IMG/VR virus record: IMGVR_UViG_3300045591_000029
Coordinates: 1-64,000 of that record
DNA length: 64,000 bases
Source of the DNA: a virus
Taxonomy: Duplodnaviria > Heunggongvirae > Uroviricota > Caudoviricetes
Reading direction: 5' to 3' (one strand)
Positions 3,274 through 30,729 of the stretch are shown piece by piece. Every line of letters starts with the position of its first letter. Positions within the stretch are counted from its first letter, which is position 1. Under the pieces are notes generated by a model that did no database searches, was not told the origin of the DNA, and saw only the letters and a program-made list of their open reading frames with translations. A program made the translations under genes and the position numbers.

Positions 3274-4187
3274 TATGAACCTCCACGAGTTCCATTCATA
3301 CCTAGCTCTTTAGTCTTATAGAACTCAATCCAATAAGTCTCTCGTTCATTTAACTAATCTCTAGGCACTTCTTCCAAAACCTCAAATATAAAATTATATT
3401 GACCAGATTTTTGCATCGCCTAATATAACTTATTAGTCGCAGGTCCGTATGCTAAAGAGGTTTTAATGTGCTGTCTAAAACGCTCTTTAATATCAACAGA
3501 CTAACCAATATAAGCCTAACCAGTTGTTAAATCGGTAATCTTATAGATGCCGCAGACCTTCGCTGCTTTAGAGAATAATCTTGCCATAAGCGTATCATAT
3601 GAAGGTTTATAATAAGTTTCCCAAATTAGCTTATCTATTGCTTCTTTCTTAAAGAAACGCTTCTATAATTCACGGAGCAATTCAATATCACTAATATCTA
3701 TTTCATCAATAGCAAGACGATAATAGTCCTAATCTGCGGCAATCGCTTCTTGGCGTTGCTAAGCCTAGATATAAGACAACTATTTAGCTTCTAATTCGTG
3801 GAGTTTGTCTTGCTGATAAGAGATTTGATTAGTTATCTATTGAAGTTCTGCTAAATGATACTTTTCTTTGGCTTGATATGTTTCATCCAGCTCTTTAGTT
3901 TTCTTTTCAAATTGAGCTCTAGCGCTCTCTTCTGCTCGCTACTCAGCGCTTTCCCGCAACTTATTCGCAGTATCGTTCAAAGAATTGACAATTTCATTAT
4001 GTGATGCAATATCTTCTTTTACTTTTGCTAATTCTCTCTATTTCAATGCAATATCTTGTTCAATGCGTTTATTCTCTTCTTGTCTTTCTTTATTTATCAA
4101 TACTACCTAAAGCCGATTATTGCGAAGATATAAAACATATCCGATTAGCGCAAGAATAACCAGGCCTGATAATATGTAATAAATCAT
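3274..4187 (-). CDS. TAG-recoded gene: N-terminal TM helix plus coiled coil, C-terminal GIY-YIG nuclease domain (13 in-frame TAG)
   Basis: hand translation on minus strand: MIYYILSGLVILALIGYVLYLRNNRL*... GIYKITDLTTG*AYIG*SVDIKERFRQH...ETYWIEFYKTKELGMNGTRGGS; only TAG interrupts, ends with TAA; invisible in standard-code ORF track. Confidence 0.55.
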
Positions 4188-4198
4188 AAGTAAAAGAA

Positions 4199-4228
4199 AT
4201 CGGTAAGAGGCATAATCCTCTTACCGAT
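4199..4228. terminator. hairpin atcggtaagagg-cataatcc-tcttaccgat downstream of 4237..4500
   Basis: 10-bp perfect inverted repeat. Confidence 0.4.
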
Positions 4229-6096: not shown

Positions 6097-8460
6097 TTAT
6101 ACTTGCGTAATAGAAATCACTTGTTCGTTGTTCTTCAGCATGATATTGCCCATGGAAACTCGACCAAGAGTGGGAATGTCTTTACCGCTAATAACAATAG
6201 AAGACTTGTCACCATTGATAAGGAGATTATCACTTTCTTTGATAATCTCCGCTCCGGCGATTTCTCCCTTATAGCAGAGTAATCCCTTGCCTCCACGATT
6301 CTGTAAAGTAAGTTCATCAATCTGCATTTTCTTACCCAAGCCATTCTTGGAAACAATAGCGAGATAATCTGCGGGATCTACGATCGGCAATGCCGCGATT
6401 ACGCTGTCGCCATCATTTAGTTTCATGCCCTTAACACCTTGCGCTGTGCGCGAAGAGATAGGCATTTCCGTGGTTCCAAATCGAATAGCCATACCATTCT
6501 TTGTTACCAATAACATCTGCTCTTGATTGATAAATGTAACATCTGCAAGTTCATCGCCATCTTTAAAACTGATAGCGATAATACCCGTACGTTTCATCTT
6601 ATCATATTCATCAAGAGGAACCTTCTTGATAGTACCATTCTTTGTGGCAAAGAAGATAAACTTCTTGTCAGTATCTCTGGTCATTGTTGTAAATGCCATA
6701 GGTTTCTCGCCATTCTCAAACTCAATTAGAGTGGAGATAGGCGTTCCGTTAGACGCATTTGTACCTTCTGGAATATTATCCACTAATACACGATACATCT
6801 TGCCCTTAGAGGAGAATACCATCAAGGTATCTTGCGTATTAGTCTTCTGTGAGAAGAGAACAATGTCGCCTGTCTTAACGCCAGTAGTATTACGCTTTTG
6901 AGCCTTAAAATTCTTAGCATCAATACGCTTAATAGTGTTCTTCTTTGTCACTACAACTACGCAATCCTTCGGCTCAACGACAACTACTTCTTTCTCTTGC
7001 TTTGGAATGTCGGTGTTAAGCAGCTTAGTTCTACGAGCATCACCATAAGTGTCTCTTAACTGAGTAATCTTAGAGATTAAGACTTTATTTCTTACTTCCT
7101 TATTAGTTAAGATTTCAATACACTTAGCAATAAACTCTTTCTTTTCTTTTAACTCATTGACTAATTCTTCTTTATCAATACGAGTTAATTTGCCGAGCTT
7201 CATATCGAGGATTGCGTTTGCTTGCACTTCATCAACAGAGAGGAAATCCATTAGCTTAGTTCTCGCATCAGCGCGTCCCGCAGATTGTTTAATCAATGCA
7301 ATTACTTCATCAATCTTATCAACTGCGGCAATCAGACCCTCAAGGATATGTGCTCTTGCTTCAGCTTTCTCTTTATCGAAAGTTGTGGCATTGACGAGGA
7401 CTTCTTCTTGATGGTCAACATACGCATGGAGTAAATCAACCATAGAACAGAGCTTAGGTGTGCCATTGACAATATAGTTCATGTTATAGGATAAAGTAGA
7501 CTGTAAATCTGTCAGCAAGAACAACTTATTCAATGCCTTAGATACAGACACTCCATCTTTTACATGGAATACCAACTTGTTCTGACCGATATTAGACTCA
7601 TCATCAAAGTCATCAATCAGCTCACTTAGAACATCAATATTCTTCTCAATCTGCTCTTTAATCTTATTGCGGTAGGTACGATAAGGAATACTGGTGAAGA
7701 CGATATCCTGCCCATCAATCTCATAATCGCCCTGAATTTTCAGAGAGATATTAGATTTACCGGACGCAAAAGCTGTCCGCACATCCTTAATGTTAAGAAC
7801 TGTACCACCGAGAGGGAAATCTGGTCCGGGAATATAAGACAACACTTCATCAATAGTCAGTTCGCCCTTCTCGATTAAAGCAATAGCAGCATTACATACC
7901 TCTGTCAGATTGTGCGGGGCAGAGTTATGCGCCATAGAAATGCCGATTGCTTGACGACCGTTACAGATTGCGTTGGGAAATAGTGAGGGAAGAACGATAG
8001 GCTCTTGGAACTCACCATTGTAAGTCTCTTTAGTAGGAACAACATTCTTACTAAAGTCATTCATCATCAGGTCGGTAAACTTAGAAGGCTTAGCCTCAGT
8101 ATAACGAGAAGATGAGAACATATCGTTATTTTCCTGTGTACCCAACTGTCCCTGCCCAGTTACAAGAGGATAGCGCATGAGAAACTCCTGCGCCATCTTC
8201 CGCAGAACACCATAGCAAGCAATATCGCCATGGAAGTAGGAGGTTGCCAGAGTAGAACCAATGATAGCATTACACTTCTTAGTCTTACTCTTGTTATCCA
8301 TCTTTAGATAATCTTCCATTGTCCAAAGAATCTTTCGCTGAGCACTAAGGAGACCATCTTCCGCGGCAGGAATCGCACGATCGGTTAGAACTTCTTCTGC
8401 ATAAGTTAGAAAGTTATCTTTAGCTTCATCAAGAATATCAACTTCTGTAATCAAACTCAT
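6097..8460 (-). CDS. type IIA topoisomerase subunit A (GyrA/ParC-like)
   Basis: RAIP..DGL..QRKIL, HGD, active-site SSRYTEAK, YIPGPDFPLGG; 787 aa. Confidence 0.85.
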   Translation of the reverse strand: MSLITEVDILDEAKDNFLTYAEEVLTDRAIPAAEDGLLSAQRKILWTMEDYLKMDNKSKTKKCNAIIGSTLATSYFHGDIACYGVLRKMAQEFLMRYPLVTGQGQLGTQENNDMFSSSRYTEAKPSKFTDLMMNDFSKNVVPTKETYNGEFQEPIVLPSLFPNAICNGRQAIGISMAHNSAPHNLTEVCNAAIALIEKGELTIDEVLSYIPGPDFPLGGTVLNIKDVRTAFASGKSNISLKIQGDYEIDGQDIVFTSIPYRTYRNKIKEQIEKNIDVLSELIDDFDDESNIGQNKLVFHVKDGVSVSKALNKLFLLTDLQSTLSYNMNYIVNGTPKLCSMVDLLHAYVDHQEEVLVNATTFDKEKAEARAHILEGLIAAVDKIDEVIALIKQSAGRADARTKLMDFLSVDEVQANAILDMKLGKLTRIDKEELVNELKEKKEFIAKCIEILTNKEVRNKVLISKITQLRDTYGDARRTKLLNTDIPKQEKEVVVVEPKDCVVVVTKKNTIKRIDAKNFKAQKRNTTGVKTGDIVLFSQKTNTQDTLMVFSSKGKMYRVLVDNIPEGTNASNGTPISTLIEFENGEKPMAFTTMTRDTDKKFIFFATKNGTIKKVPLDEYDKMKRTGIIAISFKDGDELADVTFINQEQMLLVTKNGMAIRFGTTEMPISSRTAQGVKGMKLNDGDSVIAALPIVDPADYLAIVSKNGLGKKMQIDELTLQNRGGKGLLCYKGEIAGAEIIKESDNLLINGDKSSIVISGKDIPTLGRVSMGNIMLKNNEQVISITQV

Positions 8461-10879: not shown

Positions 10880-11052
10880 TCGCTATACCTCAAATACTTC
10901 ATTTATTTTTAAGTTCTCCTTTTTTATTTCTGAATATATAATACCATATATTTTATAAAAAATCAAGCTTAAAATAAGAAAAGGCTTAGTAGATTATTAA
11001 ATCTACTAAGCCTTCAATATTAGATGGTTGCCTCATCCTAGATTATTTGCTG

Positions 11053-11259
11053 CTATTGTTGCTCACACATAGCTAAATCATAGGTAATTCCACCCTTGCG
11101 ATGATCAGATTTACTCATATTTAAGTAAAAAGAACAAACAATACCATGCGCAGACCAGGGTAATCCTACTAATGCACTAATCCATGGAAGAGTGCCTAAA
11201 TAACCGAGATGTACGCAATAGAAAGCAAGAGCAATACCAGAGATAGTTACAATCCACAA
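11053..11259 (-). CDS. small membrane protein, putative holin (adjacent to endolysin)
   Basis: 68 aa, two hydrophobic segments, location immediately downstream of endolysin. Confidence 0.3.
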   Translation of the reverse strand: MWIVTISGIALAFYCVHLGYLGTLPWISALVGLPWSAHGIVCSFYLNMSKSDHRKGGITYDLAMCEQQ

Positions 11260-11342
11260 TAAAGAGCGAATATCGCAAATAAGTTGTTTAGAAAATTCTC
11301 TCTTCTAGTTGTGTCTTCTTTTCCCTCTTGTTTGACGAGTCA

Positions 11343-12749
11343 TTATTGACCACTCTTTTCAGCATAACGTTTTAGAACGGCTGCAAATTCACCACGAGTC
11401 ATAAAGCGTTTTGGCATCAACTGACCTTTTTCATTGCCATTGATTAAGCCATTAGCTTGTGCCCAAGTCATTGCGTCTTGCTCCCAGGTGACTGGTTGCG
11501 CAGCGAGCTGACTAAGATATACATTCATCATTTCATTGAATTTTTCTTGAGTCATGTCTTCATCATCCTCCTCGATACCTTTAGACTGCATTAAAGCAGC
11601 AACATCTTTGCGGACGGTTGTCATATCTTTGCCATATTTCTTGAACCAATGGTATACATCAGCATGGTTGCTACCGAGACCTAGTTGATAGCTATCTTGA
11701 TGGCAGAGAATAGTTGGAACCGTTACACCATTTACATTTACAGAACCATTTGGATTGATATTATATGTCTTGCATAAGTAAGCTGTCAATTCGCAAGCTT
11801 CTTTGTAGACTTTAGCGAAGTAATCGGGGTCACTTAGATTGTCTTCGCAGATTTCAAACTGAATCCATCCAGTATTACAGCTACCTTTAGATCCTGAACC
11901 GCAACCCCAAGGTCTATAATTCCAAGGTAGTGTTTGTACTGCGGCTACGCTTCCGTCAGCAAGAGCACCAATCCAAGCGTTTACACCAGCCTGCTATGAA
12001 CTATGATTCCAATCGGTTCTACTGGTATTTTTACCAATTTTAGTAATCAGAGATTGATAGTTCTTGTCGTTCTCAGACGGTTGAACATAACGCTTAATGG
12101 TCTTATTATTAGCGCCTGTACTGTGCCAGAGGACGCCTTTAATATCCATCTTGCGGGTTTGCTTATAACAAGTGCTATTAGTCATCATACAAACCAATGG
12201 TTGATTAGCGTTTGAATATTTCATCTTAGCTACTTCCTCCTTTTGCGTTGAATAAGTATTGAAGTAACGTTGGCCATATAACGCACGCTATTTTAGTGTG
12301 CTAGAGCTCTGATCTGCCGGTCTTTCGAACTGAGTGACCACCAAATTAGATGCTTCTTCAACAGATGAGGTAGTCTTCAAGATTTTTAATAGCTGGGAGT
12401 AACTTGTAGTTAGTTCCTGATATAAAAAATCTAGTTGGGTGTTTAAGTCACCAATAGACTTTCCTCGACTTTTACACAGCTAAAATAGACCTTGCTTGCG
12501 GCTCCAATATGTCCATTGAGCTAAACCATATCCCGCAGAATCATGCGTGAAATTGGTATAGGAGCCGTTATCAACAGCCGCAGTATACGAGGCATCATTC
12601 ATTCCTAACTCACTCTCATATGAGTTCTATAAGTTAGTTGGAATAAGTCCGCTTTCCGCGAATAGATTCCCCATTAGACCTGCGGCGCCGCAGTTACTTA
12701 ATCCTTTTGATTTGAGATAATCCCAAATAACTTGAGCATTATCCGCCAA
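11343..12749 (-). CDS. multidomain endolysin (cell-wall hydrolase) with C-terminal SLH domain; 4 in-frame TAG, TTG start
   Basis: continuous frame through TAGs: ...CGAAGLMGNLFAESGL... MKYSNANQPLVCMM...GVLWHSTGANNKT... ...TWEQDAMTWAQANGLINGNEKGQLMPKRFMTRGEFAAVLKRY (SLH-type motif). Confidence 0.6.
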
Positions 12750-12811
12750 TGACCTCACCTCCAATTAGGGTATAAAAATAGGTCGAGGGAAAAATTCCCT
12801 CGACCTCGTTA

Positions 12812-14185
12812 TTAAATTTTATCAGCGATAGAAGCAATCTTACTACGATAGATATTCTTAAGAGTTACCTCTCCATAAATATCCTTACCTCTAAATACTT
12901 TTGATACTCTCCGCATACCGTTATTTGCACCAGAGAAGTGAATATCATCAACCTGAGTTTTTTCATCACCATCAATAATACAAATACAATCTTCGCCAAC
13001 ACGCTGTAGAGCGAGTTTCATCAGTGTGCGGTCAAGGTTTTGAGCTTCAGAAATATAGATACCTGCGTTCATACCAGAAGTATCATAACCACGAATATCA
13101 GAGAATGGTAGTAAAACTAATTTACCTTCTGCGATTAGTCTCTCAACTTCCTCTCGACCGCCGAACTTACTACTTAGCAAGTTGCCAATCTGAGAGTCAA
13201 GTAGCTTTTCGTCTTTTGTTCCCGGATAATATCCGAGACGAGCAGAGTTAGCAGTAGCAACAGTATTGCAGAAGATAATAATTTTATCTAGTTCATGGGC
13301 TTCCATTTTTGCCATTAAATAAGCCAGAGAAACGAAAGTCTTTCCGCTACCAGCTGGACCTTTAACAAGAGTTAGCTTGTTATTACGCAAACTATCAAAT
13401 AGCATCTTTTGATAAATATCTCCAGAGTATGGAGAAATCTTACCAAACCACTTAGAGTTAATGGTCTTAGAAGAAAGGTATCTGAACTCTTCGCCTGTCC
13501 AAACCCGCAAATCAACAATCTCTCCATTGCTATTTTTCAGGATAAGATACTGTCCTGGTAATAGGTTAAAGGAATTATCGTTCGGATTCTGATAAAACTC
13601 TGCTAGAGCTTCGTCGCTATAAGTAACTTCAATATAACCAGTATAATTGTCTACTTCTTCTGGAACGCTCTCAATCATTCCATTACCAAAGAAGCAGTTA
13701 GCGATATGCTTTAGACTTAAATCGTTAGTTACAAAGACAATATCTTTTTCTTTGTCGCACGCAATGGCATCAGACAAGATGCGAGTATCATCAGTAACAT
13801 CGAAACCCGCTTCTTTAATTACGAACTCATTGTCTACTTTGTGCGGGATTACTTCATACTTATCTGGATATTCTTCAAACAAATGAAGCAATAGACGAGC
13901 TGAATACTTGATGTCAGCATCCTTATTTGAAGCCGTCTTAATTCTCTCTAATTCTTTTAATGTAATTGAGGAAACTAAGAAGGGCTTCTTGTCCTGCTCA
14001 AATAGACTTTCTCCGGCCAACAAAAGGGAGCAAGTATCGTAGAAGTATCTATCTGTTGGAAACCGTACATCATAGTTCATGTTCATCTTCCTCTTCGTAT
14101 GTAGTGGCAAATCCGATTGCCCTAGATTGAGTTTCTCCTTCACTAAGTTTATTAATCGCAACATTGTGACGAACAATTCTTTCAT
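12812..14185 (-). CDS. phoH: PhoH-like ATPase with N-terminal PIN-like domain
   Basis: LVKGPAGSGKTFVSLA Walker A, PhoH family architecture; 457 aa. Confidence 0.75.
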   Translation of the reverse strand: MKELFVTMLRLINLVKEKLNLGQSDLPLHTKRKMNMNYDVRFPTDRYFYDTCSLLLAGESLFEQDKKPFLVSSITLKELERIKTASNKDADIKYSARLLLHLFEEYPDKYEVIPHKVDNEFVIKEAGFDVTDDTRILSDAIACDKEKDIVFVTNDLSLKHIANCFFGNGMIESVPEEVDNYTGYIEVTYSDEALAEFYQNPNDNSFNLLPGQYLILKNSNGEIVDLRVWTGEEFRYLSSKTINSKWFGKISPYSGDIYQKMLFDSLRNNKLTLVKGPAGSGKTFVSLAYLMAKMEAHELDKIIIFCNTVATANSARLGYYPGTKDEKLLDSQIGNLLSSKFGGREEVERLIAEGKLVLLPFSDIRGYDTSGMNAGIYISEAQNLDRTLMKLALQRVGEDCICIIDGDEKTQVDDIHFSGANNGMRRVSKVFRGKDIYGEVTLKNIYRSKIASIADKI

Positions 14186-14303
14186 TTATATTAGCTTTAA
14201 TAAGTTCTGTAATAGCACTTATAATTTCACTAATACTATTGAGTAAGGTGGCACCTACTGTGATAAGGAGAACTCCAATTAAAATATTTACCAATAAAAC
14301 CAC
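14070..14303 (-). CDS. small membrane protein (overlaps PhoH start; may be spurious)
   Basis: 77 aa hydrophobic ORF. Confidence 0.25.
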   Translation of the reverse strand: MVLLVNILIGVLLITVGATLLNSISEIISAITELIKANINERIVRHNVAINKLSEGETQSRAIGFATTYEEEDEHEL

Positions 14304-14337
14304 CTCTTATGTTATTATAATAAATAAGAGAAGTTTG

Positions 14338-14802
14338 TTAATTATTATCGGCCTTCTGTCTAAAGCGTTTGACAGATTCAATAGCTTTATCTTGACCAAG
14401 AATATATTTATGTAACATATTTTTCTCTTTATCAAGAGCCTCTTTAAGTGCGTCGGCTCTATATTTGCAGCGCATCATATTTCGATTAAAAGCGCCTAAT
14501 GGGTCCACTTCCGCAGGAGTTTTAACGCCAAGACCTAATACCTCTTGATAAAACTGATTGCGGACATTAAACTTATCTCTCTCTTGCTTATAAAAATATT
14601 CAAGGGCTTCAATTCTTGCTTTTGATAGAGCAATATTATATCCAACTTTTTTAGAGTAGAAACCTTCATCACCCTTACTTAGTACAGCAGCGCCATGAAA
14701 AGTATGCCCTTGATAGCAAATCTTTACATTGGTGATACCTTCTTCTTCCTAATAATCTTTCATAATCACAGGAGCTTTATATATAGCTTTAACCAAATTC
14801 AT
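14338..14802 (-). CDS. hypothetical protein with one in-frame TAG
   Basis: hand translation MNLVKAIYKAPVIMKDY*EEEGITNVKICYQGHTFHG...FRQKADNN; no ORF on track because of TAG. Confidence 0.45.
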
Positions 14803-14981
14803 ATAGTTTTGTTCTCCTTATTTAATTCTTTATCTATATGATAGCAAAATTTTATAGATAAATCAAATTTGCCCTATTTCTCCGAAAAATTTGCTGGGCC
14901 TATGTGCGCGGAAACTCGGAGATCGACGATGCTAGCGACAAAAAAAAAGAGCCGCGCTCTTACGAACGCGGTTCTTCAAAA

Positions 14982-16478
14982 TTACTCCTTATTGGAGGAG
15001 TCTGCCAACTTGCCACCGAGGAAACCGGTGAGCAAGGTTTTCACATCAATACCGAGGGATTCGCTCAGTCCCTCAGAAACCTGAGCGACATTCTTGATAA
15101 TGTTGCCAGACAGCTTGCTGGTGTCATCACCGAACATCACAATCTTGTCAACATTGGTGTACGCCTGGCCGGTAGCCTGAGCAATAGCAGGCAACTGCTG
15201 GAAGTACAGCTTGAGGGCTTCCATCTGCATATCCATCTTTGCGGCTTCGCCGTACTGCTTCATAGCTTCCGCTTTCTTCATAAGACCTTCGGCTTCTGCC
15301 TCAGCCTTAGCCTGAATCGCAGCAGCCTCAGCTTCACCACGGGCCTTAGTAGCCGCAGCTTCTGCCTCACCCTGAACACGAACAGCTTCAGCAGTAGCAC
15401 GCTGGGCTTCAGCTCTCTGCTCTGCCTCAAAACGCTCGGCTTCCGCAGTCTTCTGACGCTCATACAGATCTGCCTCAGACTGCTTCTGAGTAGCGTACAG
15501 CTTAGCATCAGCTTCCTGCTGGGCAGCATACTTCTTAGCTTCCGCAGTCTTCTTGACCTCAGCCTCCAGAGCACGTTCCTTAATGGCAACTTCGCGCTCC
15601 TTCAGGTCGATTTCCTTTTCCTGACGAGCAATGTCAGCATCTGCCGCAGCCACATCACGCAGTTTACGCTGGTTCTCAGACTCAATCTCCATAGCAGCAT
15701 TAGCCTGAGCCTGCTTGGTATCAGCTTCCTGCTTCAACTGAGCCTTCTGAATAGCCAGACTATTGTTGCGCTTGGCAATCTCTTCCTCAGCCTTTACGCG
15801 GGCATCGTTAGAAGCCTTAGCGTTCTCAGCCTCGGCAACCGCAATCTCACGCTGGGCATTAGATTTAGCGATTGCGGCGTCCTTGCGGATCTGCTCGACG
15901 TTATCAATACCGAGGTTGGTGATAACATCATTGTCGTCAGAGAAGTTCTGGACATTGAAGGAAACCAGTTCCAGACCGAAACGAGCCAGGTCAGGCACAG
16001 CATTTTCCTGCACCTTTTCGGAGAATGCCTTGCGATCACCGACCATCTCGGTCAGCTTCATCTGACCCACAATCTCACGAATATTACCTTCCAGAAGGTC
16101 GTTAATCTTCTGCGCAATCTGCTCACGAGAGACATTTAGGAAGTTCTGAGCAGCAAGAGCAATCATCCCTTCACTCTGACCTACGCGCACAGAAACGGTA
16201 GAATCAACTCGCACATTGATGTATTCCGCAGTCGGCACGGCAGAGCCAGTCTTAACATCAATCTGGATAGCTCCGAGTGCCAGCTTATCCATTCGTTCCA
16301 AGAAGGGAATCTTGACACCAGCCTTACCGACCAGAATACGAGGTTTCTTGTGCAGACCGGAAATGATATAGGCAACATCGGGCGGAGCCTTTACATAACC
16401 AGAAGCCAAGAGGGCGATAAGAGCAATAGCAATAATCACCACAGGGACAAAAGGAAGAATAGTCATCAAAATTTCCAT
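14982..16478 (-). CDS. SPFH/band 7 (flotillin-like) membrane protein
   Basis: N-terminal TM, SPFH core, long Ala/Glu-rich coiled coil; 498 aa. Confidence 0.75.
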   Translation of the reverse strand: MEILMTILPFVPVVIIAIALIALLASGYVKAPPDVAYIISGLHKKPRILVGKAGVKIPFLERMDKLALGAIQIDVKTGSAVPTAEYINVRVDSTVSVRVGQSEGMIALAAQNFLNVSREQIAQKINDLLEGNIREIVGQMKLTEMVGDRKAFSEKVQENAVPDLARFGLELVSFNVQNFSDDNDVITNLGIDNVEQIRKDAAIAKSNAQREIAVAEAENAKASNDARVKAEEEIAKRNNSLAIQKAQLKQEADTKQAQANAAMEIESENQRKLRDVAAADADIARQEKEIDLKEREVAIKERALEAEVKKTAEAKKYAAQQEADAKLYATQKQSEADLYERQKTAEAERFEAEQRAEAQRATAEAVRVQGEAEAAATKARGEAEAAAIQAKAEAEAEGLMKKAEAMKQYGEAAKMDMQMEALKLYFQQLPAIAQATGQAYTNVDKIVMFGDDTSKLSGNIIKNVAQVSEGLSESLGIDVKTLLTGFLGGKLADSSNKE

Positions 16479-16536
16479 GTGTTACTCCTTAATATATTAA
16501 ATTGTTTTTATTTATAAATCAATGCGTTAGTATTGT

Positions 16537-17223
16537 TTATCCGTAGTAACCTCCATCGGGAGGATCTCGTTTATAAGAGGTGCAAAGTTCAGGGATACAG
16601 CCACAATTAGGATAGGTATACACGCACTTATCGCATCTAATCACAGGCTTTGGTTTTTCAACCTACAGCTGAGCCTTGCACTCTTCTACCTTCTCGTTCA
16701 TTTCTTTGATAACATCATCAAGGAGAACGGGATAGCACTCGTGGGAATCGACTCCCACATGATACATGAAAGGAATTTCATTGTAGAAATTACTTGTTTG
16801 ATGGGTATGACCAAAGAGATTGCAAGTCACCTGCTTAAGTGACTCTTTCTCAAGATTGCCTGTTAAAGTAGGATAATGAGAAGCATAGAAATGATACTTG
16901 CGATAAGTGAAAGCATAAGCGTCAAACACGGGAATACCAGCTCTAAGATAGGCTTCTCTGCGGTTAGCAGTATCATGGTTACCACCAACCACGAGTTTAC
17001 GACCATTCATGCGATTGAGCAAAGCAATCCCTTCCTCAAGCTTATCAGCTCCGCCGAGCATGAGGTCGCCGCAGATAATAAGAGTGTCTTCAGGGGCCAC
17101 GCACTCATTATTCTTCTTTACGATAGTCTCATTCATCTCTTCAACACTCTCAAAACCACGAGCTTTCCAGATAAATTCCTTATCGTGATTATAATGGTAA
17201 TCTGATGATAGCCAAATTTTCAA
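16537..17223 (-). CDS. calcineurin-like metallophosphoesterase with TAG read-through C-terminal Cys-rich extension
   Basis: GDLMLGG...GNHD motifs; ORF ends at TAG 16663-16665, same frame continues VEKPKPVIRCDKCVYTYPNCGCIPELCTSYKRDPPDGGYYG to TAA. Confidence 0.55.
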
Positions 17224-17229
17224 TATAAG

Positions 17230-17934
17230 TCACTTCCTTTTGGGTGTTGTAATGGCTTCAATTCTCGACATTCCATTTTTCATACGCTTGTATACCGAAT
17301 TTTTTGAAATATTATAAATGGAACACCAATCTTTGAAATTGTGAAATTCTCCATTGATTTCAATTAACTTGCTGGCTTCTTCTATGGGGATGTTATTTGG
17401 AATGATTTCCAGTGTTTCTGGATTATATTCCCTAAATATAAATCCCTTTACTGTTTTATATCTGTTACTACCGGATGCGCATTTTCTAATACTAGCTCTA
17501 TCAGTTCCTAACTCATGAGCTGCGGCAGTTATTGTAGGAAAAAATTTCTTTTCTCCACTTGTTTCTGAAATGGCACAAATGGGTGTTGCCAATTTAGCTC
17601 GTACTTCTGGATCATCAAATGGATATTCTGTGTTTAGAGTTTGATTATATCCATGCTAAGAGGTTAAGCTATTATATTCAATGATTGCATCATGCTCTAA
17701 TTTATATCTTTCTTCTGGAGTTTGAATATCTTTTATTAAGATTTGAAAATCAAAATTCTCTATACCATATTTTCTTATGGCTCGATATAATGGATATTCA
17801 TATCCTGCGCGAGATTCGAGACGAGCATTTTGCTAATGTTCATACCACCTTGTTGTAAATCCTCGTGACTAGTCACTGGAACCAATATAGGTTTTATGGT
17901 TAATCAGATTTTCGATTTTATAAATGAAATACAT
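17230..17934 (-). CDS. GIY-YIG homing endonuclease with C-terminal HTH (3 in-frame TAG)
   Basis: MYFIYKIENLINHKTYIGSSD*SRGFTTRWYEH*QNARL...; C-terminal part equals track ORF 17230..17592. Confidence 0.6.
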
Positions 17935-18023
17935 TTTATCACCTTCCATTTATAAATGGAAATTCTTACAGACTCTTTTATTACTTCTGACCTCATCTTT
18001 GATAGTCATTGAAAAACTTATTC

Positions 18024-18557
18024 TTAATGGTGCACACGCACCTCGATATTAGAAAATCCCCAATTGGTCTTAGGAAACTCTTTTTCAGTAGGAATAGAAA
18101 ATCCCTTCTTCATCTTCTTAATTGCGGAATCGGGGATTCTGGCAACGCCAGTCCGCTGAGCATTACGCTCAAGAGCGGTTTCGACAGGAACATCAATGAC
18201 TTCAAAGGTCAATTTGGTATGCGGATCTGCGATCAACCGACCAAGGAGCTTTGCACGAGAAGCGGGGCTAATATGAGTCGCATCCGCAAACACAACATCA
18301 ATATCAAGTTCCATAGCTTCATTAATCTGTCGGACAAATTCGTCGAATACTTCAACTTCTTTGTCAAAGTAGCTATCACGATCGGTCAAGATGGACTGCC
18401 GCACGAAATCTCTGGAAACTACACAAGTGGTGCGATGCTCTTCTTCAATTCGGGCTACCTCTTGCTTCACCCAAGTAGATTTTCCGCTACCGGGTACCCC
18501 AACCATGACTTTCAGTTCAGTTGTCATTCTTTTCGCCTCCATCCATTTTTGCCCCAC
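18024..18557 (-). CDS. P-loop polynucleotide kinase (Pnk-like kinase domain)
   Basis: VMVGVPGSGKSTW Walker A, AAA_33-like kinase layout; 177 aa. Confidence 0.55.
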   Translation of the reverse strand: MGQKWMEAKRMTTELKVMVGVPGSGKSTWVKQEVARIEEEHRTTCVVSRDFVRQSILTDRDSYFDKEVEVFDEFVRQINEAMELDIDVVFADATHISPASRAKLLGRLIADPHTKLTFEVIDVPVETALERNAQRTGVARIPDSAIKKMKKGFSIPTEKEFPKTNWGFSNIEVRVHH

Positions 18558-18792
18558 AATGTGAACAATACTCCCAGAAGTTACTCTTGATTACTTTCTT
18601 ACATACCGGACAAATTCGTTCCGTATGATAATTCATGCCAACTTCAATATCCCATTTACTGTGAGTTACTGGAATAACATCTGCAGCTGGTATTGCCATC
18701 AGTGCAGCAGCACTCACGTACACATCGTCCCAACGACCATGTATGAAATTGGCTTGCGATACAGCCACAGCACGGTCAATGTATTCTGGCAT
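18517..18792 (-). CDS. zinc-ribbon protein
   Basis: CPVCKK...CSHCGAKM; 91 aa. Confidence 0.4.
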   Translation of the reverse strand: MPEYIDRAVAVSQANFIHGRWDDVYVSAAALMAIPAADVIPVTHSKWDIEVGMNYHTERICPVCKKVIKSNFWEYCSHCGAKMDGGEKNDN

Positions 18793-19054
18793 TAGCTAAC
18801 CTCCGTTCAACTTCAGCCATCACCCAAGCAATATCTTCATCAGATACCTCGGTTTCAAACTGAATAGAGCAGTTCTCACCTTTTACTCTTGCTTCAATGA
18901 GCAAATTAACAGCATCTTCAAGGTCCTGTTGATGCTCTATGAAAGGAGAAAAAGCTCGATTCTCTTGAGCACAAGGACATGGGACAGGAGACCAAAGATC
19001 GGATTTGCATCTTGGGTTATCGTGATAATCTAACATACCATGCGGATGAGTCAT
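18776..19054 (-). CDS. hypothetical protein
   Basis: 92 aa intact ORF. Confidence 0.4.
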   Translation of the reverse strand: MTHPHGMLDYHDNPRCKSDLWSPVPCPCAQENRAFSPFIEHQQDLEDAVNLLIEARVKGENCSIQFETEVSDEDIAWVMAEVERRLANARIH

Positions 19055-19220
19055 TACTTTTCCTCCTGTTCAATAAACTGCTGAATGATAGCCATTGATT
19101 TTTCAATATCATTTAGCTCGTCATCAATGAACACGCCGCTCCAATCCAGACTATCAATAATGCCATCGAGGGTTTCCAACGCTTTAACAGCGTCATTTTT
19201 AGTGACCATACCTCATGACT

Positions 19221-19262
19221 TCCTTTCTTAACTTTCTATAAATATTATAATATATATTTATA
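19221..19262 (-). promoter_or_regulatory. same promoter-like motif
   Basis: tcctttcttaactttctataaatattataatatat. Confidence 0.45.
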
Positions 19263-19305
19263 ATAAAATCAAAAGGTTCTAAGAATTAGAACCTTTTGAT
19301 TTTAT

Positions 19306-19803
19306 TTAATTAGTTTGATCAGTAAAATAGACTTGTGAAAGTTCACCAATGTCATCAATCTCACAATCGTTTATTTCAAATGGCCAATCTACCCATAAAT
19401 CAATATGATTTTCTAAAAAATTTAATGGATCTTTCTTAAAAGTTTTATAATCTTCCTCAGATAGCTCAAGTTCTCCATGGTAATATCCGCCTCGTAGATA
19501 ACCAGTAACCCAATCTACTTCTGCATCTATATTAACTTTATGAGTTACCTCAGTTGGATTGTCAAGAGAGATATAATATTTTTTGCCATTGATTTTTTTC
19601 CAGAATGAATAACTACTTTTTGGATAGCCAACTTTTTTTTCTAGAATATCTTCCTTGGTATTAGATTGCAACACAATAACTGGGTTTTTACGCGGATCTT
19701 GACCAATTGGGTGAAAATCTACTCCATCGGCGCCGGTAATTTCAAACCATTCTTTCCATCCTGTTCCTTTTTGCCATTCAGCCATTATTATTCCTCCTGA
19801 CAT
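19306..19803 (-). CDS. hypothetical protein
   Basis: 165 aa intact ORF. Confidence 0.45.
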   Translation of the reverse strand: MSGGIIMAEWQKGTGWKEWFEITGADGVDFHPIGQDPRKNPVIVLQSNTKEDILEKKVGYPKSSYSFWKKINGKKYYISLDNPTEVTHKVNIDAEVDWVTGYLRGGYYHGELELSEEDYKTFKKDPLNFLENHIDLWVDWPFEINDCEIDDIGELSQVYFTDQTN

Positions 19804-20612
19804 TGGATTAGAGATTCGATATACTCGCGTCCTTCTCCGACAAATAGCGGGATACTTTTATCAATTTCCCAGCTAGAGCGAGTTACACCATCGGTCTCAG
19901 TTGTAACCTTGATGCAACAAGAGCCATGCTTATACATAGGATGAAAGTTTTCCCAAGAAATCCCTTTCTCCGTGATTAGCATCTCTTTGATTTTCTCACA
20001 AGACTTACCTTGGAGTTCTTTATGAGAGAAATTAGCCTGGCCTACCATTTGAATAGAATTGCGGGTTGCATCTAGCTGACGCCAATAGACGAGGTTGGTG
20101 ACCTCTTCTTTGGGAATATTGAAGCAACGAGCATCAAACATGGCGCCCATTTGTGTTTTTACTGCATAAGTCTGGCCCAAATCATCTTGTGGGTAAGGGT
20201 TATCCATAGTCGCATGAGCGGCATAATAATCTAGATTCCTATGCCGGACTCCTTCATTAAATGCTTTATTGAAAGCCATCGTTGCCATAGAAGCAGCGAT
20301 AGAGCACATTTTCTGTACCTCGTAATCAAACCAAGCAGAGCTGTTGAGCCGCTTGTAATCAACAAGGATAAGAGTGATTTCATCACTTTGTGTATACCCT
20401 AACACGCACCCTTGAATGTTTTCACAGAGATATTTCATGGTATCCTGCATTGTGTTAATCAATACATCATCAAAAGGCTTGCTGAAACCACGGGTAAAGG
20501 TGTGGAAAGCTTTACCGTCAATGCGAATTGCAACCGGTGTACGACGCATTAGCTTAGTCTTAGGAACGCTTTCGTAATCTTTCATTCTTTTAGCCAGATC
20601 TGACGTATCCAT
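19788..20612 (-). CDS. Thg1-like protein (tRNA-His guanylyltransferase family; 3'-5' nucleotidyl transferase for tRNA 5'-end repair)
   Basis: VAIRIDGKAFHTFTRGFSKPFDDVLINTMQDTM...LGYTQSDEITLILV matches Thg1 core (RxDG..FH.F...KP.D...QSDE). Confidence 0.6.
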   Translation of the reverse strand: MDTSDLAKRMKDYESVPKTKLMRRTPVAIRIDGKAFHTFTRGFSKPFDDVLINTMQDTMKYLCENIQGCVLGYTQSDEITLILVDYKRLNSSAWFDYEVQKMCSIAASMATMAFNKAFNEGVRHRNLDYYAAHATMDNPYPQDDLGQTYAVKTQMGAMFDARCFNIPKEEVTNLVYWRQLDATRNSIQMVGQANFSHKELQGKSCEKIKEMLITEKGISWENFHPMYKHGSCCIKVTTETDGVTRSSWEIDKSIPLFVGEGREYIESLIQCQEE

Positions 20613-20613
20613 A

Positions 20614-21387
20614 TTATACCTCCTTTATAAATACACTAGTTTCTAACAATAAATCTTCTAAACAAATATCTTGTTCGTGAGTATATGGAATCCTGATAAT
20701 CTTTATTCCGTTAGTAGAACACCATTGATTTTTTATTTTGTCATGCAATACTGTTTTTTTGAATTGTTCTTTGGTATTCCATCCTCGTCCGACATAGGAA
20801 AAATGTTGTTCTCCATCAAACTCAATAATGTATTCATCGTTTACATAAAAATCAAAACGAGCTAGTTGCTTAGTATCAGGGAAAACACAATCAGGAAAGG
20901 TTTTTTCTTTTTCAAAGCTGATATTATTAGCAGTTAGTATCTTTTCTATTGTGTATGCTCCATGAGATTGCTTCATACAGCCACAGGAGAATGTTTTCCC
21001 GCTTACCAAGTTGTAACTACGGACTTCGGTCTCATTTCCGCAATCGCATAAACAATGCCATACTACCTGTCCATTCAGTCTTTTACTAGTTGGATATTGA
21101 GCTACCAATTTGCCGAATCTCTAATTAGATAAATCTTTAATTGGAGTTTTCTTGCCGGCACGCTCTTTCTACAAGCATCCACAAGACTATGTTAATCCTT
21201 TTCGCAGGTTAGAACTAAGCACATCTTTTTCATTTCCGCAGTCGCAAATACAATGCCAGATAGTCTCTCCTCGGCTATCTTTTCCAGCGATATTAAGTGC
21301 TGTTAAGCGTCCGAATTTCTGTCCAGTAATATCAATTCTTCTTCCCATAATCTCATAAAACTCCTTTATATTTATTTTTTCTACCAT
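20614..21387 (-). CDS. putative homing endonuclease of the FGRLT...WxCxCDCGN zinc-module family (three modules; 3 in-frame TAG); joins track ORFs 20614..21108 and 21187..21387
   Basis: frames identical (573 nt apart), intervening sequence ...KGLT*SCGCL*KERAGKKTPIKDLSN*RFGKLVAQYPT... has only TAG stops. Confidence 0.5.
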
Positions 21388-21497
21388 AAATGAATTTTAT
21401 GAAATAGAGATTAAACTTTTCTGTCCTTAGATATTCATGGCTGGTAGAATCTTCCCCTTTCTTATACATATATTATATAATAAAATAATAAAAAAAT

Positions 21498-24438: not shown

Positions 24439-24591
24439 AATCTTTAAATTGAGAGGCAAAGTGTAAGAGTATTAAAGAGAGAGTCCCTGTCGTAAAACCG
24501 GTAAGATAGACGGCTGAAGGAGGAACTATTGTTCCTAGAATAGAACCAGCAACAATAGTAGCCAGCCACAAACCATAGAGGATAATTCTCA
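24439..24591 (-). CDS. small membrane protein (50 aa, below track threshold)
   Basis: MRIILYGLWLATIVAGSILGTIVPPSAVYLTGFTTGTLSLILLHFASQFKD with RBS. Confidence 0.3.
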
Positions 24592-25322
24592 TACCTCGTC
24601 CTGCGCCTCCTCCATATCGGGAGCAGTCTCAGTCTCTTTGATAATACCCTCTAAATAATTTATATTCAAGTTATCAAACTCCTTATAAGATATTCTAACA
24701 AGTTTTATATTGTGGGTTTTGCAATACTCGGTTTTATAAGCATCTCTTTTTTGGATAATAGCCAAAGAGTCTTTTCTGTGTTGCCATCCAACTTCATGCT
24801 GTTCTCCATCATATTCAATAAGGCATATAAGTTTATTATTATTGTCAAATATTGCATAATCAAAGCTCGCAGATTTTCCACTATCTGGAAATATACAGTC
24901 TGAAATCTTATACTGTGAGATAAAGTGAATATTCATCTAAGTCAACAGTTCGTTAATTTTTAATTCGGCCTTCGACTTCAAGCATCCACATGATTGTGTA
25001 TTACCATCCATTAAATTATCTGTTTGAACAATAACAATATTACCGCACTCACATAAACATTTCTAACTTCCTGGCGGTACTCGCTCTAAGACAGTGAGTT
25101 TTCCAAATTTTTTACCTTTTAGGTCATAGGTTTTGAAATGTATTGCTTTATCGCATCCACAAGACCCGGTATGTCCATTTCGTAGAAAATCTGTTCTTAC
25201 TTCTGTTATATTCCCACAATCACACTAACATATCCATCTAGTATATTTATCATTGCGCTTAGGAGCACGTTCGAGCGCTACTAATTTCCCGAAGCGTTGA
25301 CCAGTTAAATCCAATGCTTTCA
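24589..25322 (-). CDS. putative homing endonuclease of FGKL...CDCGN family (3 in-frame TAG); track ORF 24589..24936 is its C-terminal part
   Basis: MKALDLTGQRFGKLVALERAPKRNDKYTRWIC*CDCGN...GKKFGKLTVLERVPPGS*KCLCECGN...LT*MNIHF... paralogous to 20614 gene. Confidence 0.5.
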
Positions 25323-25404
25323 TATATAATACCTCCTTGGTTTTCTATTATATATGAAATCTCTGGAGGGTATATTATTTATTTTTGCCCTCCAGAGATA
25401 AATA

Positions 25405-26667
25405 TTACTCTTGAGCTTCCTCAATATCAGGACTGTCAGAAGTTTCCTTAATGATACCTTCAAGGACGCGGAACTCGTAAGTCTTAGACTTGAAAGCAGT
25501 GAAAGTGCGACGGTTGACGATACGAACCACAACGCCCTCTTTAACATGAGTTTTGCCGATAGGATCGGCCAAGTCCTCGAAATACTTGTTAATGCGGTCC
25601 TGCAGGTCCTCGGCAGTAGTGAACTTGAAGTTCTCAATCACCGGGACACGATTAAAGCCATGCTTCTCACACCAAGCGGTAATCTCGTCAGGAGTCCACT
25701 CACGCTGACCGTTCTCGGAAGTGATGCGATAAATCCACATATGAGACTCACCGGGCTTGCAGCCGTAGGAGAAGATAGACTTTTTACCGAACAGCTTTTG
25801 GAAAGCCTTATCTTTTAGCTTGGAGTTATCGCCGATAGGCATGATGGTATCGTTCTCAGAGGGGCCGTAGTACCCTACTACCTCGTAGAAGACCTCCATA
25901 CCGGGATCAAGATGGGGTTTCAATGCCTCATGGTGAGACATACGGAATAGATCATTGCCGTAGTAGCCCTGAGAGTTCTCAGTTACAACACACCGGCGCG
26001 TACCGAGAACATAAGCCTGCTTCAGACGCTTCTTCATATGAAATAGACGACGGAAGAAGCCATTGGGAAGCTCAGCAAAGGTGTTCATGGAACGCTGAGA
26101 AGTGCCATGCATCTTAAGAGTCATATTCAGCTCATCACCTGGACGGAACTTATCCAGATTGTATGCAAGCTGCTCAGTGTCAGTATGCATTGCAAACTCA
26201 GGATAGGTAATACCCTCTGCCTTACGACCCTTGTAGGAAGTTTTAGGAGTGGTGCTCGGAGTCTTACGCTTAGGAATATACTTACGGCAGAACTCCTTGT
26301 CATTGATAGTGTTTACCTTGTCGCCGTCCTCCCAGTGCTGATCGCCAAAAGTCTCATAGATGCGCTCAAGAGCGATGACGATGCCAGAACTCTCGTTGCC
26401 ACGAAGCTTGATAGCCCGCACGTGAGAACTATTTTCCAAGTATCCGCCCTGAGGAGTGCCATCGAGATTTTTTCGATATAAGGTGAAAGCATCACCAAAC
26501 CATCTCTCAATTTCTCCGTCGGTAGGAAGATAAAGCACTAGCTCATTTTCTTTCATGTTGGGTCCAACAATAACCCCTTCGTTAAAACAATCTGCCAACC
26601 ACAGATTATCAGAATTAGGGTCTTTATGGAGATTATTTAGTTTTGTCACTAGAGCGTAATAAGCCAT
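25405..26667 (-). CDS. RNA ligase, Rnl2-like family (nucleotidyltransferase)
   Basis: motif I LKMHGTS (KxHG as in T4 Rnl2 KIHGT); 420 aa. Confidence 0.6.
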   Translation of the reverse strand: MAYYALVTKLNNLHKDPNSDNLWLADCFNEGVIVGPNMKENELVLYLPTDGEIERWFGDAFTLYRKNLDGTPQGGYLENSSHVRAIKLRGNESSGIVIALERIYETFGDQHWEDGDKVNTINDKEFCRKYIPKRKTPSTTPKTSYKGRKAEGITYPEFAMHTDTEQLAYNLDKFRPGDELNMTLKMHGTSQRSMNTFAELPNGFFRRLFHMKKRLKQAYVLGTRRCVVTENSQGYYGNDLFRMSHHEALKPHLDPGMEVFYEVVGYYGPSENDTIMPIGDNSKLKDKAFQKLFGKKSIFSYGCKPGESHMWIYRITSENGQREWTPDEITAWCEKHGFNRVPVIENFKFTTAEDLQDRINKYFEDLADPIGKTHVKEGVVVRIVNRRTFTAFKSKTYEFRVLEGIIKETSDSPDIEEAQE

Positions 26668-27382
26668 TTAATTCCTGTTCCTCCTCTTTACTAATTCGTT
26701 TATAGATAAAACCTTTATATGTATTTCTCTATCCATTTAATACTCGATAAATTGCTTTATCGGTCTTTGCTTCTGGACAAAATTCTCGATACGCCGAAAT
26801 TGCAGTAGGAAAAATAGCTAATAATTGACCATCTTTATCATACTTCGCAATCGGCTATCTTCTTGCTTCCAGTGCCTTTTTCTTTGCATCTTCTCGATGA
26901 CCATCTTGATAGGCTTGCTTTAATTTTTCACTTCGCTCTTCTTTTAAGGAAGGATTGTCAATAAACTTCTATTTTAGAGAGTTGCTAATCTTTTCATTTC
27001 TTTCGTGACTATAAGTCCGATTTTTAGCAGCTAAAGTCATATGCTGTCGATACTCTGGATCTTCCCATAGCAACTTAACAGACTCGCCTATCTATTTTCT
27101 AATTTCTTCCGTTTGATAATTTCCACCCGGAGAGACATTGTAACCAAAATCTGTATCTAAAAGATTTAATTCTTTGATTGTATCTATCTCTTTTTGTCGA
27201 ATTAAATCTTCATTATCAGATTCTAATATTACTTCCTTAGTTACATTTTCCCAGCCATATTTTTCTATAGCGTATCCGACGCGCTACCCTTTATATCTCC
27301 CCGACGCTCGCTGTTCAATAGAATTTCTAGTAATTCCGCAGTATTTTTTCCCATTTGGGAAAGTGTATAAATAACAGATCAT
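26633..27382 (-). CDS. GIY-YIG homing endonuclease (5 in-frame TAG)
   Basis: MICYLYTFPNGKKYCGITRNSIEQRASGRYKG*RVGYAIEKYGWENV...; five TAG, terminates at TAA; no ORF on track. Confidence 0.6.
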
Positions 27383-27465
27383 CTAAATAACCTCCTAAAT
27401 CTTTCTACTTATATTAAAAGTCATTAGGAGGTTATTTAGAAGTTTTGTCCAATCGCTACTTCATT

Positions 27466-29074: not shown

Positions 29075-29827
29075 TTATTCAATTAAATTATTAAGAGTAA
29101 TATTGCCAATTTGAGTATATGGAATACGTAATAACGGAATATTGTTTTTCTTACAATATTCATCTTTTAATTTATCTCTCTGCTAAATAGTTTCTAATGA
29201 ATCTGACTAAGACCATGTTGCATCAGGTCCTAAAAAATGCTATCTTCCATCAAATTCAATTAATTTGTAAAGTTTATCTTCTTTAAAGATAGCAAAATCG
29301 AATCTTAATAGACCATTTTTTTCTGTTCTTAAATCATTAAAGGTATATTGCTAAATAAAGTTTATATTATTTTTTCTTAATAAGTCGGCAATAACTCTTT
29401 CGCCTCTGGATTTAACGCATCCACAAGATTGAGTTCCTCCACTTTTTAGATTGTTATTACTTACTTCAATAAAATTTCCACAGTCACATTGACATAAAGC
29501 CCATCTTATCTATTTATCTCGACTGGCCTCTTTTCGATATCCCAAGTCTTTTATAAAAGTTAAATGGCCAAATTTAGTTCCGGGGTCAATAATTCCTCTA
29601 TTAAAATTTTCTTGCGATAATTGTTCATTTCTTAAACATCCGCAAGATAAAGACCGACCAGAGTATAAATCTCTATATTCCTTATATCTCTTTGTGCCAC
29701 AATCGCACTAACATAAAGCCATTTTTGGAGGTTTTTTAGCCTTACTATTAGGATTTACTGTATTAACCTATAAAATAGTCCATCTTCCGAATTTAGCCCC
29801 TACCTTAATAAGATCAGATTTTTTCAT
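29075..29827 (-). CDS. putative homing endonuclease of FGRWT...CDCGN family (about 7 in-frame TAG)
   Basis: MKKSDLIKVGAKFGRWTIL*VNT...W ALCQCDCGNFIEV...LIEFDGR*HFLGPDATWS*...; EFDGR*HF aligns with EFDGEQHF in paralog 20614. Confidence 0.5.
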
Positions 29828-29895
29828 CATAATCACTCTCCTTAAAATTGGAGAGACGGACATTAATGTCCGTCTCTCCAAAAGTATATAAAATT

Positions 29896-30729
29896 TTATG
29901 ATAACTCTTTATATTCTTTTGCCCAAGGAGTATCATCAAAATAAAAGTTAGGAGATTTATTTAGCCACCATTCATGCTTAAATGTTTTTTCTCCATTCCA
30001 ACGGTTCCAAATTGTATCTAACTCCTCAATATCTTGAAATAGCATCTCGCAATGAGGTCTCTCAACTCGATCAGAGTGAAAATGAGCAAAAAGCCATACC
30101 TCCCAATCAACTTTACTCTTGATATCCTCAAGCCAAAGTTCCATACTTTTATCTACTTTGGATTGGTCAAGACCAGAGAGAAACAAATCTCTTGGCTCCC
30201 AAGAAATGGGACAAGTATGGGTTAGGACAAAATCATAACGCTTACCCTCAACCCATGCGCCAATTTCATCCATTTCCTTTTTGGTTAGCTGTTCATCCTT
30301 GAACCAGCCAGTCCAACTATCTGTATCTTCTGGACGATCTCTAAGTCGATACCACTTATCTACGGAATACGCTCCGCCGATAGCAAAGACAGAGTAGCCA
30401 TGAATGTTATAACTCTCTCCATCAAAGAGGTATCTGATATTCGGAAACTCTGGCTCATAATAGACGCCACCATCGACGTCTTCATCATACATTTGCTCCA
30501 TGGAAAGATTTTCTGGACGCTCTTCATGGTTTCCGCGAACCGCGTAAATGCGGAAGCCTGTATTGTTTACGTTTCTCTTATTCTTGCGATCGGTCTTATT
30601 CAGATAGAAATTAAGCCCCATATCGCCAAGAATAATCAATGCAGTTTCATCAGGAGGATATCCAATATGACTAAGTCTTTCAAGGACTTGACCATGAGTG
30701 TCTCCTGTAACGAGCCAGTTCTTAATCAC
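29896..30729 (-). CDS. calcineurin-like metallophosphoesterase
   Basis: GDTHG...GDMG...GNHEERP motifs; 277 aa. Confidence 0.7.
   Translation of the reverse strand: MIKNWLVTGDTHGQVLERLSHIGYPPDETALIILGDMGLNFYLNKTDRKNKRNVNNTGFRIYAVRGNHEERPENLSMEQMYDEDVDGGVYYEPEFPNIRYLFDGESYNIHGYSVFAIGGAYSVDKWYRLRDRPEDTDSWTGWFKDEQLTKKEMDEIGAWVEGKRYDFVLTHTCPISWEPRDLFLSGLDQSKVDKSMELWLEDIKSKVDWEVWLFAHFHSDRVERPHCEMLFQDIEELDTIWNRWNGEKTFKHEWWLNKSPNFYFDDTPWAKEYKELS

Follow-up and report, generated by a model that had tools for sequence, protein, structure and literature searches.

A metallophosphoesterase (MPE) gene in the 64,000-nt stretch of DNA analysed here (the window; positions 1 to 64,000 of IMG/VR virus record IMGVR_UViG_3300045591_000029, from a ~147-kb gut phage, with 40% GC across the window) carries a TAG codon, in frame, at the end of its catalytic domain and, beyond it, 41 further in-frame codons that encode a cysteine-rich tail. 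The junction TAG is, on the sequence evidence, probably a selected conditional stop: termination at TAG would give the enzyme without its tail, and suppression the enzyme with it. More tentatively, it is possible that the phage code switch acts as a developmental timer on protein architecture, with the phosphoesterase gaining a previously undescribed, portable Cys4-YKRDPPDGGYYG docking module once the suppressor tRNA is active.

Every gene and gene part for which window coordinates are given below lies on the minus strand. The MPE catalytic-domain open reading frame (ORF; 16666..17223, 186 codons) starts with a TTG at 17223, downstream of an AAGGAAG motif, and the TAG (16663..16665) is its codon 187 and the sole TAG within the gene. 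Past the TAG, the frame reads VEKPKPVIRCDKCVYTYPNCGCIPELCTSYKRDPPDGGYYG (41 codons, 16662..16540) and then reaches a TAA (16537..16539), the true terminator of the extended protein, which is kept as TAA in clade A, the group of relatives to which the window belongs. The earlier note on this DNA had described an ORF ending at TAG 16663-16665 and 41 in-frame codons to a TAA, and its positions and sequence were exact. The extension comprises a fast-evolving linker of eight codons, VEKPKPVI (16639..16662), a Cys4 core (16582..16635; C10-x2-C13-x6-C20-x6-C27, plus a non-conserved extra Cys22) and the invariant C-terminal peptide YKRDPPDGGYYG (16540..16575), in which D33, P35, D36, G37, G38, Y40 and G41 are unchanging. 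Predicted products are 186 amino acids (aa) long if TAG stops translation and 228 aa if it is read, with AQLQVEKPKPVIR the expected peptide spanning the MPE/tail junction in the read-through product. Standard-code gene callers truncate this protein, and callers using code 15 (TAG read as glutamine) write a ‘Q’, masking the conserved stop.

Comparison of sequences indicates that TAG is read as glutamine in this genome. The window holds 31 tRNA genes, one of which has a CUA anticodon: an amber-suppressor tRNA at 49146..49236, called by ARAGORN and by Rfam RF00005 (54.5 bits against a gathering threshold of 29), with a U1.U72 mismatch, G73, an encoded CCA and an insertion of ~17–20 nt in the variable region. 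Its acceptor end is tRNA-Gln-like, but its long variable region is unlike that of tRNA-Gln. Many minus-strand frames are long ORFs only with TAG read through; confident genes terminate with TAA (49) or TGA (12), and all seven ORFs that appear to end in TAG continue as coding sequence. In the endolysin (11343..12764; Phage_lysozyme2, Amidase_2 and SLH domains; four TAGs), the TAG columns align with Gln in homologs, including one in the invariant NLQNSYE motif. Three lineages of PhoH orthologs carry a TAG in place of a conserved Gln, each at a different site (ISEAQN, LALQR and TQVDD); the window PhoH lacks TAG and encodes Gln at each of these sites. TAG/CAA swaps were observed within the clade as well; they are too few to infer the inserted amino acid, and the more distant lysin and PhoH homologs were used instead. 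The core genes gyrA, gyrB, ligase, PhoH, Band_7 and kinase contain no TAG, and Pfam scans of ten large window ORFs detected neither a release factor nor a glutaminyl-tRNA synthetase. We consider the genome recoded because it encodes a tRNA(CUA), its TAGs align with Gln, its ORFs are restored by read-through and TAG is unused as a terminator.

That recoding makes the tail a C-terminal extension of the enzyme had been proposed from the sequence of this locus and is borne out by the tRNA(CUA), the Gln-aligned TAGs, the contiguous tail of homologs and the purifying selection described here. A search with the read-through protein retrieved 2,786 homologs, many at 100% query coverage, and the tail is the contiguous C-terminus of dozens of full-length homologs. 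Across 56 tail-bearing MPE homologs the four cysteines and D220, G224, G225 and Y227 are invariant. Among 14 unique clade sequences, the ratio of non-synonymous to synonymous polymorphism (pN/pS) was 0.05 in the MPE domain against 0.84 in the linker, and stood at 0.17 in the tail core, where variable sites fall 6/3/14 over the three codon positions; the last 13 tail codons show synonymous changes only within the clade, at ~7 sites. In the ~29 clade-A loci the tail is always in the MPE frame, with zero indels, frameshifts or stops.

The earlier note had suggested looking for CAG or CAA at the TAG position in relatives. Neither was ever found: the junction codon is TAG itself or a codon for Asp, Gly, Thr or Arg. 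The ‘Q’ that databases give at the junction in P0001–3, P0006, P0018, P0037 and P0070 comes from gene-caller translation of a TAG, as checked by translation mismatch (P0002/P0003 excepted), the DNA having been read for most of them or for a locus with the same junction. The gene’s single TAG occupies one and the same column in clade A (the window group and L094, ~29 loci), in clade B (L095 on a 327-kb contig, L029, L096, L097, L122 and L123), which is ~55% identical to the window, and in a third lineage, L139. The linkers that follow it are unalignable (VEKPKPVIRC, IEESSPIIRC, ILPKAPKQRC, PFIVSFPQKHLGC, ETVFFVEKGC and TLSTMNKC), and no nucleotides 3′ of the TAG are conserved across lineages. 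In the remaining tail-bearing lineages the junction residue is Asp (the majority, FLDEEP...), Gly, Thr or Arg, the Arg codon being AGG in L087/L088, which are also TAG-recoded genomes. Of 60 tail-less loci, 39 stop exactly at the junction column, after C-x3-[LIV], with TAA (26), TGA (11) or TAG (2); the closest tail-less relatives, L005-7 and L018-20 in clade A and L124/125 in clade B, have TAA there.

This constancy is unlike the behaviour of other columns. TAG is the same in 9/9 divergent sequences, and a single codon is kept in just 5/78 amino-acid-invariant degenerate columns of that comparison, in which Gln columns mix CAA and CAG and synonymous sites are saturated. TAG makes up 3–7% of Gln-type codons in the TAG-junction loci. 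PhoH illustrates ordinary behaviour, with TAGs that come and go at differing Gln sites. In ~185 loci screened, no TAG was found inside the catalytic domain; the only TAG in L138 sits two codons past the junction, and in L030/31 it sits 11 codons past. A rough neighbour-joining tree without support values, in which recombination is evident, separates clades A and B, so that the TAG was either retained for a long time or arose repeatedly. IMG/VR scans with P0037 and P0018 gave no new clade-B loci, and a single metagenome scan added L122, L123, L138, L139 and L144-155. A TAG inside the tail of L028, where relatives have TGG, was considered as a further read-through case and dropped, as that genome is not clearly recoded. 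We infer that the junction TAG is kept by selection because it occupies the same column in divergent lineages with saturated synonymous sites, and because that column is the natural stop column of tail-less homologs.

How such a stop could work can be set against the published ‘code switch’ model, in which standard-code-compatible genes would be translatable before the switch. The MPE gene lies among such genes (kinase, Thg1-like, RNA ligase, RlaP-family, PhoH and gyrase). When host release factor 1 reads the TAG, for example before the suppressor tRNA accumulates, the 186-aa tail-less enzyme would be made, a product sharing its architecture with natural tail-less homologs, which show that architecture to be viable. 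When TAG is suppressed, the 228-aa tail-bearing enzyme would be made instead, and the code switch would thus set the ratio or the timing of two proteoforms. Two isoforms through partial or timed suppression had been raised as a possibility in the earlier note, and the constancy of TAG at the natural terminus column lends that idea indirect comparative support.

Several observations weigh against a conditional stop. Genes with up to 13 TAGs (3273..4220) imply that suppression can be very efficient, and the short form may be negligible late in infection. The AGG of L087/L088 and the Asp of many lineages show a constitutive fusion to be viable. The conservation argument concerns one codon, in lineages of shared ancestry with recombination, and four clade-B proteins with ‘Q’ at the junction (P0026, P0041, P0105 and P0107) fell outside the DNA-level check. 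Finally, one common clade-A variant (L001/L002; the P0001 cluster, 307 members) has lost the second conserved cysteine of the tail, reading CDKR and not CDKC. As a separate observation, this variant (MPE codons 196–208) is also without the extra cysteine (CGY), which may represent relaxed metal-site constraint in a sub-lineage.

The first two of these points suit an alternative that we judge unlikely yet take seriously, namely that the junction TAG is an ordinary code-15 Gln codon, decoded efficiently whenever the gene is expressed; the 228-aa fusion would then be the one product of consequence, and where the TAG lies would be of no functional account. No gene of the window uses TAG to terminate, and ~60 in-frame TAGs occur in its other genes, some with 7–13 per gene. 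Nor did we find a conserved read-through-stimulating context: the +4 base varies among TAG-junction sequences (G, A, A, A, C, G, A), and in-frame TAGs are followed by bases (G12, A20, C13, T15) in proportions not markedly different from those after CAA/CAG. An ordinary Gln codon would, however, be expected to exchange with CAA and CAG, as PhoH displays for neutral TAGs, and at the junction column CAA and CAG never occur; TAG has been kept there in at least three divergent lineages, despite synonymous saturation and CAA/CAG-mixed Gln columns, and at the very column where tail-less homologs stop; the other core genes lack TAG.

It is quite improbable that translation stops at the TAG and that re-initiation or coupling then yields the tail as a small protein of its own, although precedents for separate synthesis exist. 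Stand-alone module genes with their own ATG occur in L090, behind a ribosome-binding-site-like GAGGAG, and in L092, with a TAATG overlap; their neighbours are a 199-aa ORF with no Pfam match, or DnaB and RecJ/PolIII-alpha flanks after a 349-aa ORF. The syntenic L093 has an MPE homolog (38% identity) terminated by TGA, with an ATGA overlap onto a 77-aa tail protein, and L055, L143 and L172 are split likewise, with the tail in another frame and, in L055 too, an ATGA overlap. The window itself has an in-frame GTG in the linker (16642..16644) that would start a 35-aa ORF, near the size of the stand-alone P0299. The earlier note’s statement that the tail has no separate start or ribosome-binding site thus holds for the latter, as no Shine–Dalgarno-like motif is present, and needs amending for the former by this GTG, which is absent in relatives (ATC, ATA, GTA or ATT at that position). 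Most clade members have no ATG, GTG or TTG from the TAG to the first cysteine, as in IEESSPIIRC, encoded by ATT GAA GAG TCA AGC CCT ATC ATA AGA TGT, and no Shine–Dalgarno motif. Moreover, all TAG lineages keep the tail in frame with the MPE, unlike the truly split versions, and this genome suppresses TAG. Because the tail is selected, in frame and without a conserved start, read-through is the only conserved route to the selected product, and these patterns indicate that the tail is translated in the MPE frame through decoding of the TAG.

That the TAG is a real terminator and the 41 codons an untranslated, decaying remnant of a once-fused tail, as the complete loss of the tail in the close relatives L005-7 and L018-20 and the cysteine lost from one variant might suggest, is strongly disfavoured and barely credible given purifying selection on the tail core, the purely synonymous changes in its last 13 codons, the lack of indels or stops in clade A or clade B, the tRNA(CUA) and the disuse of TAG as a terminator elsewhere.

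Returning to the tail that the conditional stop would add or withhold, we found it to be a module in its own right. Relatives that lack the downstream frame, or carry it out of frame, had been named in the earlier note as telling against an extension; some such relatives exist, and at this locus they leave the extension standing and reveal a module that is separable from the MPE enzyme, present as a separate gene, as a fusion or not at all. The label ‘zinc ribbon’ given to the tail was not upheld, as it contains one CxxC and two single invariant cysteines, matches no Pfam family and is modelled by AlphaFold with a predicted local distance difference test (pLDDT) score of ~53–60. AlphaFold2 gave a pLDDT of 52–61 for the tail in context and 53 for the tail alone with a 121-sequence alignment, with no strands predicted. 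The four cysteines are invariant in those 121 module sequences too, with a third-to-fourth spacing of C-x(4-13)-C. From this pattern, the tail probably binds metal through a Cys4 site and its free C-terminal peptide probably docks onto a partner.

A tail-only profile gave 152 matches among 1.84 billion representative proteins, and in nearly all of the 150 matches listed the module lies at the extreme C-terminus. Most matches are small proteins of 35–150 aa, some with two or three Cys repeats; others are fusions to MPEs, to the polynucleotide-kinase-like P0329 and to several unknown domains. No family in Pfam, PHROG or NCBIfam matches the module, and a full-text literature search for the motif ‘DPPDGG’ found nothing. 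An unannotated module with an invariant free C-terminus thus recurs on nucleic-acid repair and replication proteins, which makes it a candidate interaction tag. P0288, from another phage, is a homing-endonuclease ORF that continues without a change of frame into an MPE-type linker and tail (...VDTESCTKPIVLPRCERCV...YKRDPPDGGYYG; compare P0120/L138), which suggests that mobile endonuclease genes also insert at the MPE/tail junction.

The assignment of the enzyme itself as a metallophosphoesterase stood up well. PF00149 (33.6 bits; cut-off 21.5) and PF12850 (31.3 bits; cut-off 27) both exceed their curated cut-offs, phrog_547 ‘phosphoesterase’ matches at 1.5e-40, and the metal-binding DxH, GD, GNH and GHxH motifs are present, with D8, H10, D53, N82, H83, H139 and H141 invariant among homologs. 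The AlphaFold2 model of the domain has an MPE fold with pLDDT >90 and a C-terminal helix (residues 168–190) whose last turn is at the TAG. The nearest structure is 1xm7 (Aquifex aq_1665, of unknown function); whole-protein searches by Foldseek and by PDB profile found generic MPEs only (1xm7, 1s3l and GpdQ), and PDB searches gave nothing that ties the enzyme specifically to the Pnkp phosphatase in sequence or structure. A search of annotated phage proteins yielded just ~30%-identical MPEs of Enterococcus and Staphylococcus myoviruses and no annotated precedent for the tail. At the DNA level, a GenBank phage search with 14000..20000 found no close relative, its sole match being 450 nt at 65%; kinship with phAss-1/Phassvirus was considered and was not shown, as this search gave no relative beyond that match.

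The MPE gene (16537..17223) is found among putative RNA-repair genes. Its conserved upstream partner is a P-loop polynucleotide-kinase-like gene (AAA_33; 18024..18557; PF13671, 3.8e-16), which adjoins the MPE gene in L001, L005, L087, L093, L095, L096 and L097. In the window, a GIY-YIG/NUMOD homing-endonuclease gene with three in-frame TAGs (17230..17949) is wedged between the two; in L001, which is without this insert, the kinase and MPE genes are 14 nt apart. The endonuclease gene is context and lies outside the proposed mechanism. An RNA ligase (25405..26667) lies in the same region, so that polynucleotide kinase, phosphoesterase and RNA ligase are co-encoded in the window, together with an RlaP-family nucleotidyltransferase (31482..32285), a second metallophosphoesterase (29896..30729) and a Thg1-like gene (19788..20612). 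This gene set, with the 31 tRNA genes, points to a phage heavily invested in tRNA protection or repair. Lying 3′ of the MPE gene is a Band_7/flotillin-like gene (14982..16478) encoding 498 aa with a long Ala/Glu/Lys-rich coiled-coil; it uses 33 CAG and no CAA codons, and its counterpart is called at 323 aa in close relatives (L001 10719..11690). L095 has a second MPE-like gene (6600..7289) with a TAG followed immediately by a TAA, which could be an old TAG terminator with a TAA backup acquired after the change of code.

Elsewhere in the window, TAG is concentrated in lysis genes and mobile genes. A holin-like membrane protein (11020..11358) has three TAGs and forms, with the endolysin, a lysis cassette (11020..12764) inside the replication/repair block, between PhoH and RNase H/gyrase; the SLH domain of the endolysin hints at a Firmicutes host. 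Several homing endonucleases (GIY-YIG and Zn/Vsr-like) contain 3–13 TAGs each, and TAG is sometimes their majority Gln codon, with a count that in some homing-endonuclease-like genes equals or exceeds CAA and CAG combined. The heaviest TAG users of the whole window are the homing-endonuclease-like genes at 3273..4220 (13 TAGs), 26633..27460, 52898..53872, 20614..21396, 24589..25347 and 29075..29908. Judged by this TAG load, selfish elements appear tied to the phage code switch.

ARAGORN also called two tRNA-like genes with four-base ‘anticodons’, taaa and tgtt, at 40913..40986 and 47955..48029; the former has an 8-nt anticodon loop (GUUAAAAG), and the latter has 32% GC and an A.A mismatch in the acceptor stem. 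The region 61600..62860 is without a convincing ORF, one frame giving repeated ‘SVFQT’-like translations, and may be a regulatory or origin-like region; tandem repeats with periods of 20 and 21 nt occur at 61602..61641 and 62645..62697.

Pnkp-type end healing, which combines a kinase with a metallophosphoesterase, is known from T4 Pnkp/Rnl and from Clostridium thermocellum Pnkp. The window resembles these systems in that a P-loop kinase gene adjoins the MPE gene, with RNA ligase, Thg1-like and RlaP-family genes nearby, and the occurrence of the tail module on the polynucleotide-kinase-like P0329 is a further Pnkp-like link. It differs in that kinase and phosphoesterase are separate genes, and the MPE is only a putative end-healing enzyme. 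The tail, for its part, is like small Cys4 zinc modules such as ribbons and knuckles in having four invariant cysteines within ~18–30 residues and a CxxC as first pair; unlike in those modules, the second pair is not CxxC, and the defining trait is a terminal YKRDPPDGG[YF]YG-COOH that occurs in no annotated family.

Programmed stop read-through gives C-terminally extended isoforms in the Q-beta A1 protein and in retroviral Gag-Pol. In the same way, a C-terminal isoform of MDH1 arises by read-through of its stop (PMC5133446; reviewed in PMC8310308). As in these cases, the junction TAG lies at a domain boundary of one mRNA, purifying selection acts on the downstream frame, the shorter product is functionally complete in itself and the identity of the stop is conserved. 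The difference from classical read-through would lie in decoding by a dedicated cognate tRNA of the phage, acting genome-wide, and not by near-cognate decoding through local context or RNA structure. Classical read-through yields two products; here the two proteoforms are inferred from sequence.

TAG-to-Gln (code 15) recoding is itself known in gut phages, among them crAss-like, Lak and ‘gemstone’ clades (bioRxiv 10.1101/2021.08.26.457843; PMC9523058), and an extension through a recoded stop is its expected consequence. In those accounts, recoded stops are viewed as switches for whole late genes (bioRxiv 10.1101/2021.08.26.457843; PMC9523058). A text search of Borges et al. (bioRxiv 10.1101/2021.08.26.457843) turned up nothing on isoforms, read-through or C-terminal extensions, nor did a narrower search of Peters et al. 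(PMC9523058). We came across no account, in the literature, of recoded stops being conserved at domain boundaries or of a code switch generating isoforms.

The window shares with code-15 phages its own tRNA(CUA), Gln-aligned TAGs, TAGs in lysis and not in replication genes, and the purging of TAG as a terminator. What sets it apart from code-15 accounts is a core gene compatible with the standard code but for one TAG, which lies at a domain boundary and is conserved as TAG across lineages. At present, recoding is regarded as gating late genes in an all-or-none manner; the conserved boundary stop suggests a second use, two proteoforms from one gene, for which it offers a test case that comes down to one codon, in a gut phage clade of high prevalence. 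Sister lineages provide natural controls, with AGG or Asp at the junction as a permanent fusion, TAA as an enzyme with no tail and the ATGA-split loci as separate genes.

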